37,362 nucleotides of DNA from a virus. Lineage: Duplodnaviria > Caudoviricetes. A model generated the notes under the pieces. The model worked only from the letters and a program-made list of their open reading frames with translations. It made no database searches and had not been told where the DNA came from. Below are positions 6,001-23,023 of the stretch, piece after piece (the first letter of the stretch is position 1; each line of letters starts with the position of its first letter). Both the position numbers and the translations under genes were made by a program. Where the stretch lies: IMG/VR virus record IMGVR_UViG_3300037408_000071, positions 1 through 37,362 of that record. One strand, given 5' to 3'.

Positions 6001-7954
6001 CCGGAGCGGGTTCGGGGGCGGCCGGGCCGCCGTCGAGCACGGGGCCGAGCACTTCCTCGGCCGGAATCGGGCCCTCGGGGCTCGTCGGGCCAGCCGGACG
6101 CGGACCACCGCCTGCCGGGGGCGGTGTCGGGCCGCCAGCCGGGGGCGGCGTAGCGGGTCCGGTCTGCGGGTTCGTGGGTGCCGGCGAAACGGTCGGCTGG
6201 CCGCGCAGGTTGGCCGCTGCCTGGCGCGCGCGCTCGGCATGGGCTGCGAGTGCGCCGGAGCCAGCGCCCGGAGTAGCGCCTCCTATTGCGCCCAGGACGG
6301 CGTTCGGGAAGCTGCCCGCCATGACGTCGCGCTCGGTGCCGGCGCCGACGTTGATGCCCTGTTCGGTCGCAATGCCTTCGCCGGTTTCCTGCAGGCCTTC
6401 CTCGATGGCGCTCGCCGTGCCGCGCAGCGCCATGTTACCGACGTAGGATCCGCCGACGAGGCCCGCGCCCAGGCGAACCGCTGGCGAGAGGATCGCGCCC
6501 GTGGCGGCGCCGCCGGCCGCCGAGACGGGCAGGGTGATGCGGAAGGCCCACTTGGCAGCCTCGGCCGCCGTCATCGCCTTGGCCTGCTCATGCCCGAGGC
6601 GTTCGCGCAGCTGGCGATAGTAGGACGACTCCTTGGCGAGCTCGGCCTCGTCCATGCCCTCGATCGTCTCGCGGGCCTGCTGCGCCGCTGCACCGCCGCC
6701 CTGCGCGCCACCGAGGCCGCCGGCGACCGCCACCTGGCCGGCAACCGGCAGGTTCTTGGTCAGCGCGACGCTGGCAATGATCGGCGCGAACTGGCCGAGG
6801 ATGACGGCGCCGTGCTGGATGTAGCCGCCCAGCGACGGATCCTGACCCATCGACCACGTCGCCGGGTCGCTGACGTCGCCCTCGGGCGTGGACTGCTGCT
6901 GCGCCATCTGGCTCGCGAGGCTGCGGCTGTCGAGCACGCCCTGGCTGTAGCCCTCGATGGCGTTTGCTGCCCCATCGAGCGGGTTGATCGGGGTGATTTC
7001 GGGGCCGCCCAGGGCGGCAATGCCAGCGGCGATCGGCTGCGCGCCCTCGCGCATCATTTCGCCCGCGCCGCGGACGGTCATGCCGACGCCCTGAATCGCG
7101 CCGCCGGCGATCGCCCGGCCTGCATCGCCGATGCGGCGCGCGAGGCTCGGGTTTGTGTCCTGATCGAACAGCTTGCGGGCCGCGGCCTGCTGGTCGGCGG
7201 GGATGCGCGGCGCGACCTCGTCCTGCCAGTACCGCTCGCGGATCTGCTCGCGGGTGTCGCTGTCGGCCTTGAGCCAGGCCTCATGCTGCACGACCTGATC
7301 CCACGTCATCGCCGGGCCGCCTGGCTCCGCGGTCTGCTGCGCCCGTTCCTCGACTACGGCTTTCTCGAGATCGACCGACGGCGCGGCGCGGCTCGCGTTG
7401 CGCTGCTGCTCGAGGTACTGCCACGGCGACATTGCGCCGCTCGGGGCCGTCGCGCGTGCCGGGCCCGTGACGCCCATGCGGGAAACGACCTCGTCGCCAT
7501 ACTGGCCGACGGTCGGCGCGCTCGGGTTGCGCGGGTCGCGACGGGATTCCTTACCGATCGCGCCGGGGCCGCCGTAGTAGCCCTGCGCGATCTTGCGCGG
7601 GTCGCCGCCGGTCTTCTCGGCCAGCATTTCGATGTAGGCGACGCCGGCCTCGGTGTTGTGCTCGGGGTTGTCCCAGCGATAGTTGGCCGGGATGCGCCCC
7701 TCACGCTGCATCTGCGCGAACGTCGTGTCTTTGACCTGCATGGGGCCGCGGACGTCGGACGAGTTCGGCTGCGACGTATCGGCAGCGCCGTAGCTGGATT
7801 CCTGCCCGTAGATCGAACGGGCCACGCCTGCCAGTCGCGTCGAGCCGCGGCGCTGCAGGATTCGATCGAGCGTATCGCCCGTTGTCGGCCCTTCGCCGCC
7901 CTGGTCGTTGTTGATGCCGCGCGAACGAAGGTACTCAGCGACCGTTTGGGCCAT
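2..7954 (-). CDS. Giant DarB-like polyvalent internal virion protein, >2650 aa, 3'-truncated by window edge (lytic transglycosylase, InPase-like domain, N6-adenine DNA methyltransferase, SNF2-type helicase)
   Basis: ATG at 7954 (MAQTVAEYLRSRG). The ORF track has no closed ORF in this frame below 7954, and I checked 5222-5940 by hand for stops (none). Motifs: GQESSYG...GPMQV (SLT, ~7470-7830); PTQAQKEAGNYK...HYGYIKGT.GKDKDHIDV (InPase-like, ~4810-5310); VLEPSVGVGNF (~3260-3295) and IGNPPF (~3083-3100) of an N6-MTase; DHVVGAGKT Walker A (~1205-1231); FIDEMH (~722-740); TGTPVSNS. Confidence 0.93.
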   Translation of the reverse strand, partial: MAQTVAEYLRSRGINNDQGGEGPTTGDTLDRILQRRGSTRLAGVARSIYGQESSYGAADTSQPNSSDVRGPMQVKDTTFAQMQREGRIPANYRWDNPEHNTEAGVAYIEMLAEKTGGDPRKIAQGYYGGPGAIGKESRRDPRNPSAPTVGQYGDEVVSRMGVTGPARATAPSGAMSPWQYLEQQRNASRAAPSVDLEKAVVEERAQQTAEPGGPAMTWDQVVQHEAWLKADSDTREQIRERYWQDEVAPRIPADQQAAARKLFDQDTNPSLARRIGDAGRAIAGGAIQGVGMTVRGAGEMMREGAQPIAAGIAALGGPEITPINPLDGAANAIEGYSQGVLDSRSLASQMAQQQSTPEGDVSDPATWSMGQDPSLGGYIQHGAVILGQFAPIIASVALTKNLPVAGQVAVAGGLGGAQGGGAAAQQARETIEGMDEAELAKESSYYRQLRERLGHEQAKAMTAAEAAKWAFRITLPVSAAGGAATGAILSPAVRLGAGLVGGSYVGNMALRGTASAIEEGLQETGEGIATEQGINVGAGTERDVMAGSFPNAVLGAIGGATPGAGSGALAAHAERARQAAANLRGQPTVSPAPTNPQTGPATPPPAGGPTPPPAGGGPRPAGPTSPEGPIPAEEVLGPVLDGGPAAPEPAPATAPPLAPSPVAATNGPAQEAAPLLEDAEQGGSRYNKGHEQANRPNAEVPGRVPNVSVDDPSVPGSKSADIRGVRGQRDQGLPAVDGELRPLPDRYGTASGAADVAGQNRPERPLRAGELPVGDRAAASGEPEVLPDRGVSWSADDRTGGGETGGSAADDIPTTGVTAGTRPGASGDAGPTPLSSGLEIPDAQRGNDGRAGVGSPPGNQSADASGADSQGGAPRASITTGIDAAAHEAATSPLNDRPEPTQAQKEAGNYKVGRVRVQGLDISIENPKGSERKGVSKDGKPWSTVMPGHYGYIKGTVGKDKDHIDVTLGDAPDDTSRPIFVFNQADAGSGKFDEHKTFMGYADIDAARKAYRESFSGKLGRKMENNLLGIAKFTPEQFKEWLASGDHKKPAQTPTTAKPTQAIAETETANAAEEVTPPARSLYVEWNGRRHAVASVEDAQAKWAEFRDRSAAGASEIGSNLEVKDSTGAIVAHITYNGRAWTPEEWAARNKPKDEAPKAKDPLGATGPEAAGWSAFQEGKPRVPPDWTKGPAAKKWLQGWDRANIAAPVPDETSAEAPTPSPNTIFTEDAAEKARAILRAKLGQANAGLDPELVQAGITLAGYHVEKGARTFAAYAKAMVGDLGDIVKPYLKSWYAALAFDPRAEAFASEMTPVGELAALNVDALLSEAPAVDAEPSPAQNGDADANATETEQLPAGDPRATPVDDAARDGDREQVDAGLAEVGRVPDRGRGVPGDTAGAGEAGTGRVQPAGERSPRAPRDSGTVRPESGPTDAGLTDHSLADTDLGKGSLTQKYRDNIAAIRILRAMEAEQRIATPEERAAIAKYVGWGALKGVFDPNNKTWAKQHAELKGLLTEAEWKAARASILNAHYTSKTVVEAMFSALDALGFKRGRVLEPSVGVGNFFGLMPPSMRTNSQLHGVELDSLTAKIAAALYPSAKVKQSGFEAFDIPSGYFDLAIGNPPFGSEAIVDDARSPYSGFSIHNYFFAKSIDKLRPGGLLTMVVSHSFMDAKNETARQWIADRADLVSAVRLPNTAFKENAGTEVVTDILVFQRRDGAAPRKPSWVTPVEQSVTDPKTGETAKAWVNPYFVENPTNVLGTPSAGGTMYRAGEYTVEPVEGWQGKLKEWAKALPAVYTPINRTEEMSAANYEVPDGLKVGSFFVDGQGNVRQRGTGHLGERTAEVWNPPNARAAERMKGMIELRDLLRSQIRLERSADATETQIEENRKRLNGRYDAFLKKNGHLNSPTNRRVFIHDTEAPLLLALEFDFDRGISKAIAERDGIDARDPSAKKADILQRRVLFPPSDNIKVASAQDALLASLNYKGAVDLEYMARVFPEKSAEEIEAELGDTIFRDPQAGLVTADEYLSGDVKTKLTEAEAAAKGDPAYQRNAEALTKVIPRDKGPSEISVQLGANFLPPAIYEAFGKHVSGRDFTIRYGAGQWFIDQTGYADPSLNEGKYGIREMTAVEIFDHSMSGRGVVVKETVRHSDGSTTTFVKERETELAREKQSAMKAEWKAWLWGDPERAAEVARLYNEKLNRIVPRKFDGSHMTFPGMSPAVTLLAHQKNGVWRGLQARQVLYDHVVGAGKTFQMATLAMEARRLGIARKPLFVVPNHLTLQWRQEFYKLYPSAYILVAEPDDFSKGNRERFFSKIATGDWDAVVVGHSSLKKIPLPDATEQAIFEEQIEEISNAIEQLKTERGDRHILRDMERIKKNLQAKMQERANARGTRDNVLSFDELGIDGVFIDEMHEFKNLFYNSRMDRTAGMGNPAGSAKAFDLFVKLRWLTDTLGPKALLVTATGTPVSNSLVEMYTMQRYMQYQTLKGLDLHVFDAWAAQFGEVEHVYEVKPSGVGYRQSNRFSKFANLPALMALYNSFADTITLEDLKGQEEAQGRRFPVPKIATGRPVNVVAQRSPRVADFMGVPQVQRNENGDLAFKWQPGEWDITKDEATGKFKAKIRDEGAQHWYEAGTYETEADAKAALVARALAPV
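3646..3921 (-). CDS. Small hypothetical protein (91 aa) nested in the +1 frame of the giant ORF
   Basis: GGAG upstream of ATG 3921. Product MQTLLKPNSYPPEIREQLRLMTPLATEIANRWMLGWPKSVASLIEDGAYLETLREQE... looks globular and helical, while the overlapping giant frame is a G/D/R/P/A-rich linker. Confidence 0.75.
   Translation of the reverse strand: MQTLLKPNSYPPEIREQLRLMTPLATEIANRWMLGWPKSVASLIEDGAYLETLREQEKQELDVYSQPGNDHLARHEIAELYGLSPAPPTLG
5272..5886 (-). mobile_element. HNH-type homing endonuclease gene (204 aa) nested in the +1 frame of the giant ORF
   Basis: Family motifs YGGRGIKVCRRW..F..F..DMGPRP...SLDRIDPNGHYEPANCRWAT..QQ..NRR, followed by two HTH-like repeats (MTVQEAARLAGV..., MAVPEWARHLGI...). 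Lower GC than flanks. ATG at 5886. Confidence 0.9.
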
Positions 7955-7985
7955 GGCTGCACCGCTCAGTTGAACGGTTGCAGCC
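7955..7985 (-). promoter_or_regulatory. RBS-occluding hairpin directly upstream of the giant ORF start
   Basis: Minus strand GGCTGCA-A-CCGTTC-AACT-GAGCGG-TGCAGCC-ATG: 13 bp (one G-U) with a 1-nt bulge, abutting the ATG. Confidence 0.6.
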
Positions 7986-8011
7986 TATCGACGGGCCGCG
8001 CAGTTGGAGCG
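7982..8011 (-). promoter_or_regulatory. Putative phage late promoter, copy A
   Basis: CGCTCCAACTG-N13-TAGGCT in the intergenic gap before the giant ORF; one of five copies with identical spacing. Confidence 0.75.
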
Positions 8012-8013
8012 GT

Positions 8014-19471: not shown

Positions 19472-19493
19472 GATGCAATCCCCCGTTCAAAGA

Positions 19494-19517
19494 GGGGCCC
19501 GGCTTGCGCCGGGCCCC
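19494..19517 (-). terminator. Probable intrinsic terminator/attenuator after the capsid-decoration gene pair
   Basis: GGGGCCCGGC-GCAA-GCCGGGCCCC perfect 10-bp stem followed by a short TCTTTG tract. Confidence 0.7.
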
Positions 19518-19534
19518 GGTTCCACACTCACCGA

Positions 19535-20005
19535 TTACGGCGTGGCCCGGCAGACCACGAACGCGCGGATCGTGCCCGCGGCCTTGGTCGCCGATGCCGT
19601 CGTCACCTTGAAGCCAAGGGGACGAGCCGCCGCGGACGGCTGGACGGCATGGATGGCCGCCGTTGTCTGCCGCGCCAGCGTGCCGGCCTGGCCGATCGTG
19701 AGGCCCGTGGCCCATGCCGCGCCGCCATCGGCTGCCGCCGTCGAAATGTCGTCCTTCGCGGCGTTCAGCACGCCGAAAGAGACGGCATGCGCGGCCGCGC
19801 CGGTGTCGAGGTCGGTGGCGCTGTAGATGACATCGACCGGGACGTGCCCGGCGGGCAGGACGCCCATTTCGATGATGTCGCCGATAACCGTGCCGTCGCC
19901 CGTCGCCGGAACTGCGCACTCGAAGGGCAGGGTGACGAGGTCCGACCCCTGCGAGATCGGCGTCGGCAGGCGGCCCGACGCATAAAGAGACTGGATTCGT
20001 GCCAT
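19535..20005 (-). CDS. Putative capsid decoration/cement protein (156 aa)
   Basis: Directly after the capsid gene and before the terminator; GDIIEMGVLPAG...DLDT beta-rich motif. Confidence 0.7.
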   Translation of the reverse strand: MARIQSLYASGRLPTPISQGSDLVTLPFECAVPATGDGTVIGDIIEMGVLPAGHVPVDVIYSATDLDTGAAAHAVSFGVLNAAKDDISTAAADGGAAWATGLTIGQAGTLARQTTAAIHAVQPSAAARPLGFKVTTASATKAAGTIRAFVVCRATP

Positions 20006-20009
20006 GACT

Positions 20010-20025
20010 GATTACTCCTGTGATC
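20010..20025 (-). promoter_or_regulatory. AGGA-loop RBS hairpin of the decoration gene
   Basis: GATCAC-AGGA-GTAATC (one mismatch), with a further CAGGAT just upstream. Confidence 0.4.
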
Positions 20026-20039
20026 CTGCTGGTGTCGGG

Positions 20040-21182
20040 TTAGCCGGGGTTCGCAGCCGCGGTGTCCACGGCGACGATGCCGAAGTCCCGCGACACGCCC
20101 TCGATCGTGAAGGCGGTCTTCTTCACGCCGAAGATCGAGCTCGTCGTGATGACGGCCTGGTTGCCGTTGTCACGCGATTCCTCGGCCCAGTCGAAGCGCA
20201 GGCCCGTGCCCGGCGAACCGAACGCGACCACCGCCGCCTGCCGACCCATGAACAGCGCCCGAGCCACGGCGACCGAGCCGGCGCCGCCGTCTGTGCGACG
20301 GAGAACCGAGCGGTGCTTGTGCAGCACGACGTTGTTGTACATGCCGGTGCCACCCTTGAAGATCGGGTTGCTGCGCCCCTCGGCGCCCGACGCGGCCTTC
20401 TGGATGTCGAGCCATTGCCCGGTGCTGGTGTTCGTGCGCAGGTCGTACTCCTGCCACGGGTGCATCACCATGACGTAGTGTTCCTCGCCGTCGATCATGA
20501 TGGGCTCGATCGCCGGGATACCCGACGTGCCGCCGCCCAGCGTGCAGGCCTTCGCCACCAGCTTGTCGATGACCGACAGCGAGAGCTTGTCGCCCGAGTC
20601 GATGTTGCTGAACAGCGTGGCGTCACCACCGAAGGCCCGGTGCTCGGCATCCGGGGCGACGAACGTGTTGTTCGCGAAGCCCGCGTAGCCGCTCGGGTAG
20701 GTGTAGTCGCCATTGGCGAAGATCGACGCGCCCGTGCCGCTGTCGCGGAAGCCGCCGGACAGGTACAGGAAGAACAGTTCATCGAAAATCCGCGCCCACC
20801 ACTCGGACTGACGCGCCCGCGCGACCTTGCGCAGATCGTGGATCGTGCGCTTGCGGGTCATGCGGCCGCCCGTGTTCACACCGCCACGCGCCTGGTCGAT
20901 GTAGACGTTGTCCGTGTAGAACTTGAGGTCTTCTTCCTTGCCCTCGAGCGTGTTGTCACCTTCGACCGGCTGCATGCGAAGCTGCATGACGAGGTCGTAG
21001 CTGATCTGCTCGCCCGAGTCGCTTTCCAGCGACGTGAGCATCTGGATGGGGGTCTGCGCCTCGATGCCCTTGCCCATGAACTTCTTGTTGAAGTAGGACT
21101 TGCGGCCAACATCGACTGCGAGGAAGGCGGAATACTTCTTTACCGCCTTGGGATCATTCAAGCCCACAATTGTCTGAGCCAT
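20040..21182 (-). CDS. Major capsid protein, N4-gp56/DUF4043 family (380 aa)
   Basis: LESDSGEQISYDL, LEGKEEDLKFYTD.V.IDQ.R, GGRMTRKRT.HDLR, NPIFKG..GM.NNVVLH motifs. Confidence 0.93.
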   Translation of the reverse strand: MAQTIVGLNDPKAVKKYSAFLAVDVGRKSYFNKKFMGKGIEAQTPIQMLTSLESDSGEQISYDLVMQLRMQPVEGDNTLEGKEEDLKFYTDNVYIDQARGGVNTGGRMTRKRTIHDLRKVARARQSEWWARIFDELFFLYLSGGFRDSGTGASIFANGDYTYPSGYAGFANNTFVAPDAEHRAFGGDATLFSNIDSGDKLSLSVIDKLVAKACTLGGGTSGIPAIEPIMIDGEEHYVMVMHPWQEYDLRTNTSTGQWLDIQKAASGAEGRSNPIFKGGTGMYNNVVLHKHRSVLRRTDGGAGSVAVARALFMGRQAAVVAFGSPGTGLRFDWAEESRDNGNQAVITTSSIFGVKKTAFTIEGVSRDFGIVAVDTAAANPG

Positions 21183-21184
21183 TT

Positions 21185-21805
21185 TCAGTCTCCAAAGTTG
21201 ATGTTTGGAGCACTCTTGCGCTCAGTTGGTGATCGCCGCGCGTTTTGGTTCCCGCGCTGCGATGAACTCATTTTCGCCTTGGTGGCCGGCGACGCTTTCC
21301 GCCCCGCCATGAGCGCCGCCTGCGCCGCGCGCCATTCCAGGCTATGACCTTTCCCCTTGTTCGACTCACTAATCTTGGCGCGGGTTTCTGCGCTGACGAC
21401 GCGGCCCGTGCGTGCTTTCGCGGACGCCGACATCTTCGCGCGCGCTTCGGCCGATGGAACCCGGCCGCGGTTCTTGGCGCCGATCCTTTCCCTAGACTCG
21501 TCGCTCAGTTCGCCACGTTGCCCGCCGGCCGTGCGATTAAGGATGCCTAAGCCACGACTGGATGCCCTGCTGATCCAGTAACGCTCACCAGCGTCGCAAG
21601 CGTCACGATTCTCAAATTCTTCGAGGACCATGCAATCAGGCTGAAGTCCGGCGCCTCGCAACTCCCGAATCCATTGGTCGCGCGGCGTGTCGAAATGGGT
21701 GCAGTTGCGAACGTGCTTTTTGACGCGCGCGCCTACGTCCTGCGTCATTCCGATGTATCGGAGATCGCAAGCACGGGGGTCGAGCAGCGCGTACACGGCA
21801 AACAT
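21185..21805 (-). mobile_element. GIY-YIG homing endonuclease with NUMOD3-like repeats (206 aa)
   Basis: AVYALLDPR...RYIGMT....R...H, E.YWI, LN.T.GG, then repeats SAEARAKMS, SAETRAKIS, SPATKAKMS; GGAG RBS; stops 2 nt before the capsid ATG. Confidence 0.9.
21190..21223 (-). promoter_or_regulatory. Two overlapping hairpins in the capsid leader
   Basis: GAGCGC-AAGA-GTGCTC (21223-21208) overlaps CTCCAAA-7nt-TTTGGAG (21210-21190), which pairs the GGAG RBS. Confidence 0.55.
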
Positions 21806-21841
21806 CGGCACTCCACTTCGCCCTTTCGGGCTACGGTGGCA

Positions 21842-21871
21842 ACTCTGCCGCAATCAAAATCGGTTGGAGCG
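21842..21871 (-). promoter_or_regulatory. Putative phage late promoter, copy C
   Basis: CGCTCCAACCG-N13-CAGAGT, intergenic, upstream of the GIY-YIG and capsid genes. Confidence 0.7.
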
Positions 21872-21878
21872 GGTCGTG

Positions 21879-22079
21879 TTACGCGACGTCGAGCACGCCG
21901 CGACGGGCCAGCATGTCGGCGGCCACGCCCCGAGCCGGCGGGTCAATCCGCAGGCTCGGGGGTGCCGTGATCTTCAGCCGAGCCCGTTTGCCCGACTTTT
22001 CCTCAAGACGTACCTGCGCGCCGCCAATGGTCATGGTTTCCCCGACCCTCAAATCGACGTGCAGAGTCTTTTCGATCAT
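21879..22079 (-). CDS. CsrA/RsmA-like small protein (66 aa)
   Basis: LHVDLRVGETMTIGGAQVRLEEKSGKRARLKITAPPSLRI aligns by eye with the CsrA pattern L...R.VGETL.IG...V.V....G..VR.G..AP..V.V; ATGA overlap with the scaffold stop. Confidence 0.65.
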   Translation of the reverse strand: MIEKTLHVDLRVGETMTIGGAQVRLEEKSGKRARLKITAPPSLRIDPPARGVAADMLARRGVLDVA

Positions 22080-22957
22080 AGACGGGCCCAACGCTCCTGC
22101 TGCTCGGGCGACATGCGCGCGACGGCGTTCTCGAGATCATCGCCACCCAGGCTGTCCAGATGGGCGAACTCGGTCGCGTCGTGGCCGCTGTCGGCTGCCG
22201 CCGCCGGCAGGGCCGCCAGCGACTTCGCGCGGGTTTCCGGCGGTCGGCGGTCGCGAACAGCATCACGGACTGGATCCCGTGGGCCCTGGCCGCGCTGGGT
22301 GCGCTGGAAGCCGAGCGCCTGCGCGGTGGCCTCGACCTCGGCCAGGACGCGCCTGTGCGCCTCCCGAAGGTACCACTCGCCGTCATGCCCGGCGTTGGCC
22401 GGGTCGCTGGCAAGAGCGCGCACCTTGAGATCCCAGTTCTGCAGCAGCATCGGGTTCTTGTCGTAGTCGATGCCGTCGTTCCTGCGGATGTCGGATTTCA
22501 CGGCCGCGACGGTTTTCAGGTAGTCCTGCTCGGCTACCTGCTGGTTGAAGTTCTCGGTGAACGCCGCGTATTTCTGCTCGGCGCGAAGGTCGCTTATTTT
22601 CTCGTTGACCTCGTCCTCGAGCCGGTCTTTGTCTTCGGCGGAAAGGTCGCCGTTGCGGTACTGCTCGCGGATCGTCTTGCGCTGGTCGAGCAGCGCGGCC
22701 AGTTGTTCCTGATGGCCGTCGAGGGCCGGCGGTTCCAGCCGGATCGCGGTTGCCCCCAATTCGGGCTCGTCATCGGGCTCCGGGTCGGTGGCCGCGGCGG
22801 ACGCAGCTGGGGCGGCATCGTCGTCAGGGATCGCTTCGGCGGTCTTGGCGGCCTTCTCAGCCTCATCAAGGCTTCCGACGTCCTCGCCCTCAAGGGCTTC
22901 GCGTTCTTCGTCGGAGAGGTTGTTCAGTTCGGCTTGGTCAATAGCGGACGTGGTCAT
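22076..22957 (-). CDS. Capsid scaffolding protein (293 aa)
   Basis: Very acidic and helical; C-terminal LE.AVARMSPEQQERW; precedes the capsid gene. Confidence 0.8.
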   Translation of the reverse strand: MTTSAIDQAELNNLSDEEREALEGEDVGSLDEAEKAAKTAEAIPDDDAAPAASAAATDPEPDDEPELGATAIRLEPPALDGHQEQLAALLDQRKTIREQYRNGDLSAEDKDRLEDEVNEKISDLRAEQKYAAFTENFNQQVAEQDYLKTVAAVKSDIRRNDGIDYDKNPMLLQNWDLKVRALASDPANAGHDGEWYLREAHRRVLAEVEATAQALGFQRTQRGQGPRDPVRDAVRDRRPPETRAKSLAALPAAAADSGHDATEFAHLDSLGGDDLENAVARMSPEQQERWARL

Positions 22958-22961
22958 GGTG

Positions 22962-22975
22962 CGCCCTCCTGGGCG
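22962..22975 (-). promoter_or_regulatory. AGGA-loop RBS hairpin of the scaffold gene
   Basis: CGCCC-AGGA-GGGCG, 4 nt upstream of the ATG. Confidence 0.55.
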
Positions 22976-22993
22976 GTATGGATGACCACCGGG

Positions 22994-23023
22994 AATCTAT
23001 AGACCCGTCCGCCAGTTGGAGCG
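22994..23023 (-). promoter_or_regulatory. Putative phage late promoter, copy B
   Basis: CGCTCCAACTG-N13-TAGATT, intergenic before the scaffold gene. Confidence 0.75.

Follow-up and report, generated by a model that had tools for sequence, protein, structure and literature searches.

Translational activation by CsrA is documented for ymdA and moaA of Escherichia coli and for phz2 of Pseudomonas aeruginosa, where binding upstream frees a Shine-Dalgarno (SD) sequence that is otherwise hidden in a hairpin (PMC7652899; here and below, sources are cited for parts of their text). In phage Mu, the small protein Com binds the mom leader and activates its translation (PMC6483171). CsrA-like genes are also known from phages: the JC1 and CSP3 papers place them ahead of the capsid gene and describe them as morons, a single virion peptide being reported for JC1 (PMC9144972, PMC10269572), while surveys suggest roles in host manipulation or as anti-CRISPR factors (PMC7366521, PMC8450108); the portions of these four papers on which we draw name no target. 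The stretch analyzed here, hereafter the window, comprises 37,362 nucleotides (nt) of the IMG/VR record IMGVR_UViG_3300037408_000071 (Caudoviricetes), a linear 37-kb virus record with a completeness estimate of 59%. Between a scaffold-like gene and the major capsid gene of its minus-strand head module lies a gene for a CsrA-like protein of 66 amino acids (aa), and comparison of the capsid leaders of relatives suggests that this protein probably binds a hairpin in the capsid leader (hairpin A), breaks a helix that hides the SD sequence (helix B) and thus turns capsid translation on. An earlier note on this DNA had raised capsid activation only tentatively; it has become the best-supported part of that proposal, owing to a conserved two-state leader that co-occurs with the gene.

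Singly, the 66-aa protein scores 14.1 bits against the Pfam CsrA model (PF02599), below the 27-bit cut-off. A profile built from 61 family members matches RsmE (2jpp) with an E-value of 3.3e-9, and 30 of these 61 members match Pfam CsrA on their own at E <=0.01. Searches by Foldseek with a monomer model (predicted local distance difference test score, pLDDT, 80.8) return CsrA, RsmA or RsmE structures at all of ranks 1-13, the best with an E-value of 3.4e-3 and none below 0.001, and the model superimposes on 5z38_E with a root-mean-square deviation of 0.8 Å over 37 columns. The CsrA-like identity that had been proposed from the letters alone is thus borne out, and the protein, as modeled, has the CsrA beta-strand fold, though in a divergent form. 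The residues T5, R6, Q29, R31 and R44, which make RNA contacts in RsmE (PMC4005645), correspond to D9, L10, R32, R34 and P47 of the window protein, so that, of the five, R31 alone has a conserved counterpart (R or K in 51 of 54 aligned family rows); together with it, G13, K28 and G30 are kept among these rows, the T5 position is Asp or Glu in 48 of them and the R6 position is hydrophobic in all. The remark that the canonical C-terminal HR residues are not evident holds as well, the window having D46-P47 at that place. Judged by its residues, this is a CsrA fold with an altered RNA-contact surface. Canonical RsmE reads a C-G-closed A(N)GGAX loop via backbone contacts, with the N held by the C-terminal helix (PMC4005645). 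The phage loops described below lack this N, and the phage proteins are variable in the region of the C-terminal helix; both features agree with the RsmE recognition scheme but prove nothing. A supposed link between the loss of R44 and the loss of the first G of GGA was dropped, because R44 contacts the backbone or stacks on the A (PMC4005645).

The position of the gene is largely fixed. Its start overlaps the stop of the scaffold gene via ATGA, which confirms the tie to scaffold that had been noted before, and in 69 of 80 viral loci the family profile finds a match ahead of the capsid gene (loci of relatives are designated by L numbers below). The other 11 comprise five with less than 400 nt of upstream DNA, four with a divergent copy and two with insertions, in which no copy was seen. 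In the whole library, the profile retrieves 360 clusters at E <=1e-10; the search is headed by a 1622-aa protein (P0023), 17 stretches of which match part of the profile, probably a repeat artefact.

Hairpin A recurs in the capsid leaders of relatives. Its strict form, GCGCA-N-G[AG]-N0-2-G[TC]GC, is present in 45 of the 64 distinct leaders on which it was also defined and in none of 50 shuffle sets, and a generic C-ANGA-G hairpin occurs in 52 of the 64 as compared to 1.3 in shuffles. Clustering at 85% capsid identity leaves 44 leaders, 37 of which carry hairpin A, with C-G closure of the loop in all 37, an A-N-G-A(-X) loop in 34 and a G-U pair in 36. The covariation analysis that the earlier note had called for shows, across these 37 clusters, that the outer pairs 4-6 covary (37, 29 and 25 paired vs 33, 16 and 15 in shuffles that take no account of kinship among leaders; p <=0.001). 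Pairs 7-8 show no covariation, and the three inner pairs are uninformative on structure because they are almost invariant. GGA is found in only 14 of the 37 loops and not in the AAGA loop of the window, as the earlier note had cautioned; in most loops, the site differs by its sequence from the canonical GGA site. The loop is found some 30-50 nt upstream of the capsid AUG and does not overlap the SD sequence. That the motif is kept merely to pair with the start codon could be ruled out, as A, G and U have similar frequencies at the second loop position and the outer pairs covary. Within the window alone, the strict motif occurs once, which is no better than chance (33 of 100 shuffles hold one).

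Several capsid leaders deviate from this pattern or add to it. Eight (L004, L008, L015, L026, L046, L048, L055 and L056) carry two tandem ANGA hairpins 20-35 nt apart, which is what a two-site dimer would lead one to expect. In L036, L037 and L038, a different hairpin, GGCC-AGGA(N)-GGCC, is located roughly 70 nt upstream; the CsrA-like genes of L036 and L038 are in turn highly diverged (L037 being truncated), possibly a case of co-variation of protein and site. A further motif match, 350 nt inside the capsid gene in about ten loci, is read as coding constraint. Rfam covariance models gave no match at gathering score in the window or in 14 loci, apart from one tRNA in L001, and only a chance match (E 0.56) between positions 19900 and 23100.

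In the window context, hairpin A has a pair probability of 0.00 because the SD-hiding helix B wins, which is the minimum free energy (MFE) fold of this leader (z -3.9). The two are mutually exclusive, since the 3' arm of hairpin A instead pairs with the SD sequence in helix B. Opening the capsid ribosome-binding site (RBS) of the window is predicted to cost 11.2 kcal/mol, and 4.0 kcal/mol once hairpin A is forced. Such occlusion is typical of capsid starts, for which the median opening cost is 12.3 kcal/mol (44 starts) as compared to 5.1 at scaffold starts (27) and 5.3 at decoration starts (29). The strands of helix B reach -10.7 with their own partner and -8.1 (standard deviation 0.34) with permuted partners, and the helix beats composition-matched shuffles in 28 of 37 leaders (p 6e-6). 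Among 73 folded capsid leaders, 13 were without hairpin A and 60 were tested with it forced; the median cost then fell from 12.3 to 5.6 kcal/mol, with a drop of at least 2 kcal/mol in 51 of the 60 and in 40 of 47 out-of-sample leaders.

Gene and hairpin also go together among independent prophage loci taken from bacterial genomes; of the 80 loci, a few of which repeat loci of the viral set, 79 were evaluated and one had no usable start. Both are present in 46 loci and both absent in 31, while one locus has only the gene and one only the hairpin; the median opening cost is 14.0 with the gene and 6.8 without it (L140 was then counted as hairpin-only). On the capsid tree, 26 of the rows with neither form one distant clade. 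A deltaproteobacterial prophage group (four tree rows; five loci with L142) is nested among carriers with moderate support, and in it gene, hairpin and SD occlusion are all absent together. Here, the scaffold gene is directly followed by a short spacer whose ribosome site is open (1.9-5.1 kcal/mol), and no CsrA-like gene was found in three genomes of the group that were searched, which are possibly incomplete.

Whole-genome searches of five named phages extend the motif to other genes. Of 15 matches, 12 are within 50 nt upstream of a same-strand start: all five in Atu_ph08 (endolysin, DarB-like, gp71, a virion gene and capsid, the last with its start set by homology, 33 nt downstream of that in the annotation), three of three in F116, two of three in Itty13 (capsid and endolysin), two of four in Bcep22 and none in 933W. 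Most of those leaders that were folded show the same two states. The CsrA-like gene of Atu_ph08 is 28 kb away from the capsid gene; that of F116 is likewise elsewhere, and its motif stands ahead of p48, p49 and p53, not of capsid. In 933W, Vibrio K250 and AP1, neither a CsrA-like gene in the genome nor the motif in the capsid leader was found. In five viral relatives, all six motif matches are in leaders, five of them capsid leaders. Three loci (L049:2973, L055:4695 and L056:2360) show UCC-AAGA-GGA over the SD sequence of the gene after the decoration-like gene, possibly a further site.

The scaffold leader, for which the earlier note had proposed repression, gives a more restricted result. 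In the window it folds well (MFE -20.9 kcal/mol, z -2.5 to -2.7, pair probability 0.95-0.98), its loop is AGGA, and its stem is unlike the capsid consensus. In L188, the closest relative (capsid 93% identical), the inner 14 nt are identical, the flanks have diverged and the outer stem has six base pairs. When C-ANGA(X)-G hairpins are counted over the initiation region, start codon included and with automatic start calls, they occur at 20 of 112 scaffold, 1 of 102 decoration and 3 of 148 capsid starts; in a matched comparison, they occur at 18 of 98 scaffold starts vs 5 of 331 other starts. A count restricted to the region upstream of the start gives 3 of 49 scaffold and 1 of 61 decoration starts, as it misses hairpins with the AUG in the loop. 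Two registers can be distinguished, one with the SD sequence in the loop (window, L188, L036, L038 and L130) and one with the AUG in the loop, including an exact GCGC-AUGA-GUGC in eight mostly Burkholderiales loci. A query with the scaffold gene among viral contigs yielded no close loci. Repression thus has support at a minority of starts from several lineages, the closest relative included, and is plausible rather than general: the positives cluster by clade and the window stem differs from the capsid consensus, which leaves the scaffold leader a candidate repression site in some lineages.

From these observations we infer that the protein would form a dimer, bind RNA and act as an activator. 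The CsrA-fold dimer would bind the ANGA loop of hairpin A and, once bound, trap this hairpin, whereupon helix B would be broken, the SD sequence freed and capsid translation turned on. As synthesis of the protein would go along with that of scaffold, capsid protein would build up only from the time at which ribosomes translate the scaffold operon. Where a similar hairpin covers the scaffold SD sequence or AUG (the window and about one fifth of relatives), binding would hold down both scaffold and the regulator, resulting in negative feedback. The decoration gene would be no target.

A number of observations weigh against such activation. The window protein has Asp and Leu at the T5 and R6 positions and Pro in place of R44, a position held by R or K in no more than 27 of 54 relatives, its column being aligned less reliably, and the AAGA loop of its capsid leader is non-canonical for CsrA. 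Forcing hairpin A shifts the opening cost by less than 2 kcal/mol in 9 of 60 leaders, and part of the fall elsewhere is built in, because A takes the strand that B needs. The co-occurrence comprises few independent events (a quick tree of 87 capsids needs five label changes), and exceptions exist on both sides, L121 having the hairpin with no CsrA-like gene found in its genome and L100 the gene without the hairpin. Moreover, 92 of 112 scaffold starts are without a hairpin, and a single peptide of the JC1 homologue has turned up in virions. In the window itself, the open reading frame (ORF) of an inserted endonuclease ends 2 nt before the capsid AUG, and ribosomes ending there traverse the switch and may bypass it.

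Among other explanations, a protein-free kinetic timer would also account for two conserved folds: hairpin A would form first, in the course of transcription, and ribosomes would load until the leader refolds to B, which is more stable by a median of 6.6 kcal/mol, with the CsrA-like gene merely linked. The hairpin of L121, which stands without the gene, would fit as well. However, a timer needs stem strength and not a fixed A-N-G-A loop or an invariant G-U pair, and gene and motif stay together even at a distance of 28 kb (Atu_ph08) and shift together to other genes in F116, which makes the timer unlikely. It is quite unlikely, too, that the protein binds hairpin A yet represses capsid translation, or that it shields the transcript end from nucleases as CsrA does on flhDC. 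Most CsrA sites repress and flhDC is stabilized (PMC7652899), and copies with the SD sequence in the loop do exist (the window scaffold and F116 p49); the capsid loop, however, is clear of the SD sequence, and holding hairpin A is predicted to free the latter.

We doubt even more that the gene is a moron whose product rewires host mRNAs or, as cellular RsmA does, suppresses CRISPR-Cas, with any control of the leaders left to host CsrA. Such roles have been put forward (PMC9144972, PMC10269572, PMC8450108) and GGA in 14 of 37 loops could serve a host regulator, but the gene is fixed in the head module, the remaining 23 loops are without the GGA that RsmE needs (PMC4005645), and Bcep22 and JC1 have the leader although Burkholderia hosts are without chromosomal csrA (PMC7366521). 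A side effect of the CsrA-like protein on host RNAs may nevertheless occur. Finally, that one regulator tunes scaffold, capsid and decoration together, the full circuit of the earlier note, is very improbable: all three strings it quoted are present on the minus strand, and the scaffold and capsid sites have comparative support, yet the decoration hairpin is mismatched, pairs with a probability of 0.01, folds no better than chance (z +1.2) and recurs at 1 of 102 homologous starts, so that it was rejected and the string is ordinary SD context outside the system.

Activation of capsid translation by the CsrA-fold protein may be one instance of a wider arrangement, in which phages of the Bcep22, PBC5 and F116 types would have made CsrA a private late-gene controller with its own RNA code. 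Produced alongside scaffold, this single small protein would turn capsid (in some also lysis and large virion genes) on by flipping leaders between their two states, and scaffold and itself off where such a hairpin lies over the SD sequence or AUG. We regard this generalization as conceivable, though somewhat short of probable. If it holds, the stoichiometry of head proteins and the timing of late expression would be set at the level of translation, independently of host CsrA.

CTCCAA-N16-YAnnnT occurs four times in the window, always on the coding (minus) strand and 55-65 nt before a start, and is likely a late promoter, to judge from this distribution. Both boxes of the scaffold copy are kept in L188, where the spacer has changed, and, in relatives that lack the endonuclease, the copy behind the CsrA-like gene stands 104-112 nt upstream of the capsid start. 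Bcep22-type phages have TTGCAW-N17-[GT]AnAAT at the equivalent place. A scan for sigma-70 promoters and terminators gave a single, weak site and no terminator. Four RNA runs yielded short pieces only, none of which covers the leaders. A recurring CCAAGCATGG element upstream in the capsid leaders of L066-L074 and L080 and in the scaffold leaders of L068, L072 and L080 is probably a promoter element of that clade.

Table 1. Features of the head module and putative late promoters, in positions of the window.
Feature	Position	Strand	Remarks
CTCCAA-N16-YAnnnT copies	34925-34898, 23021-22994, 21869-21842, 8009-7982	minus	before portal, scaffold, endonuclease/capsid and giant virion genes
Putative late promoter CTCCAA-N16-TAGATT	22994..23021	minus	ahead of scaffold gene
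Scaffold leader	22950..22989	minus	inner CGCCC-AGGA-GGGCG (22975-22962), SD in loop; outer stem GUGGUCAU/AUGACCAC over start codon
Scaffold-like gene, 293 aa	22957-22076	minus	phrog_8246 (unknown function), E 3.8e-30; coiled-coil hint only
CsrA-fold protein gene, 66 aa	22079-21879	minus	phrog_8397, E 2.6e-16
Putative late promoter CTCCAA-N16-CAGAGT	21842..21869	minus	after CsrA-like gene; seen in window, L001, L002, L005, L188
GIY-YIG/NUMOD3 homing endonuclease gene, 206 aa	21805-21185	minus	PF07460, E 9.8e-13; PF01541, E 8.9e-5
Hairpin A, GAGCGC-AAGA-GUGCUC	21208..21223	minus	predicted protein-binding (ON) state
Helix B, AGU-G-CUCCAAA (21214-21204) with UUUGGAG-ACU (21196-21187)	21187..21214	minus	hides SD GGAG; predicted OFF state
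Major capsid protein gene, 380 aa	21182-20040	minus	PF13252, E 8.5e-60; phrog_334, E 4.6e-108
Decoration string GATCAC-AGGA-GTAATC	20025-20010	minus	C-A mismatch; pair probability 0.00-0.01
Virion structural gene, 156 aa	20005-19535	minus	phrog_8455 virion structural protein, E 9e-19

The head-gene layout of the earlier note (Table 1) stands for the CsrA-like gene, the scaffold and the capsid leaders; overlooked was the 206-aa endonuclease gene, which sits between the CsrA-like and capsid genes and holds the capsid leader inside its 3' end. It is absent from L188, a contig of run X5 bridges the site (21182 joined to 21813 with 53 letters between), and a homologue is found at the same place in 2 of 80 viral loci (L030 and L042); from these comparisons, the GIY-YIG/NUMOD3 gene is taken to be a mobile insertion. 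It is one of several homing-type endonuclease genes in this partial genome (35518-36006, 36700-37260, 13583-14044 and 21185-21805), namely two HNH by Pfam, one HNH-like by eye and one GIY-YIG. The 293-aa gene is inferred to encode the scaffold from its position, with no named family; it has the same position as JC1 gp46, a protein detected in virions. "Decoration" is the label of the earlier note for the 156-aa gene. A strong GC hairpin between this and the next gene (19492-19515) is terminator-like with a weak U run. Portal and scaffold, which adjoin in Bcep22-like phages, are here set apart by about 9.4 kb of additional genes (32412-23024), among them those for a polysaccharide lyase (915 aa), an fn3 protein and an Ala/Gly-rich repeat protein (731 aa); L188 has the last of them in common with the window. 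The leader of the giant gene (7940-8012, minus strand), whose product of more than 2650 aa has transglycosylase and pyrophosphatase-like domains, folds across the start region of that gene (z -2.9) and has no ANGA hairpin.

The closest known counterparts are the phrog_8397 genes of other phages, namely Bcep22 gp54, JC1 gp47, CSP3 orf23, F116 p47 and those of GP4, Itty13, PEp14 and SopranoGao, which are 39-60% identical to the window protein; the window capsid, in turn, shares 45-50% identity with the capsids of Bcep22-like, Itty13, PBC5 and Ralstonia phages. As in the window, most of these genes lie between scaffold-like and capsid genes, and the same leader motif is present in the genomes, whereas the endonuclease insertion and the SD-in-loop scaffold hairpin are additions of the window. 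While phage CsrA-like genes as such are already known, searches of open-access literature, with most subscription papers outside their scope, turned up no paper that names this leader or target. For a gene family listed as moron of unknown role or as candidate anti-CRISPR, the proposed switch offers a concrete, testable target.

With CsrA, RsmA and RsmE, the window protein shares the fold, the equivalents of G9, G27, R31 and A36 and a C-G-closed loop with A first and GA inside. It differs in that the phage family has replaced T5 by Asp or Glu and R6 by hydrophobic residues, does not conserve H43-R44-E45, goes with A-N-G-A(-X) loops and has predicted targets that are few and phage-internal. A 66-aa protein and a 12-nt site unlike that of host CsrA could conceivably serve as a compact translational switch. 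In ymdA, moaA and phz2, a host global regulator acts via GGA sites, whereas a dedicated phage protein and a binding hairpin exclusive of the SD-hiding helix are predicted here, a mechanism that, if true, would couple capsid output to scaffold output. It would also be a rare phage translational activator, for which Mu Com is the sole precedent examined: Com, a zinc finger, targets a DNA-modification gene, and here a CsrA fold is predicted to act on capsid and, in some phages, on lysis genes.

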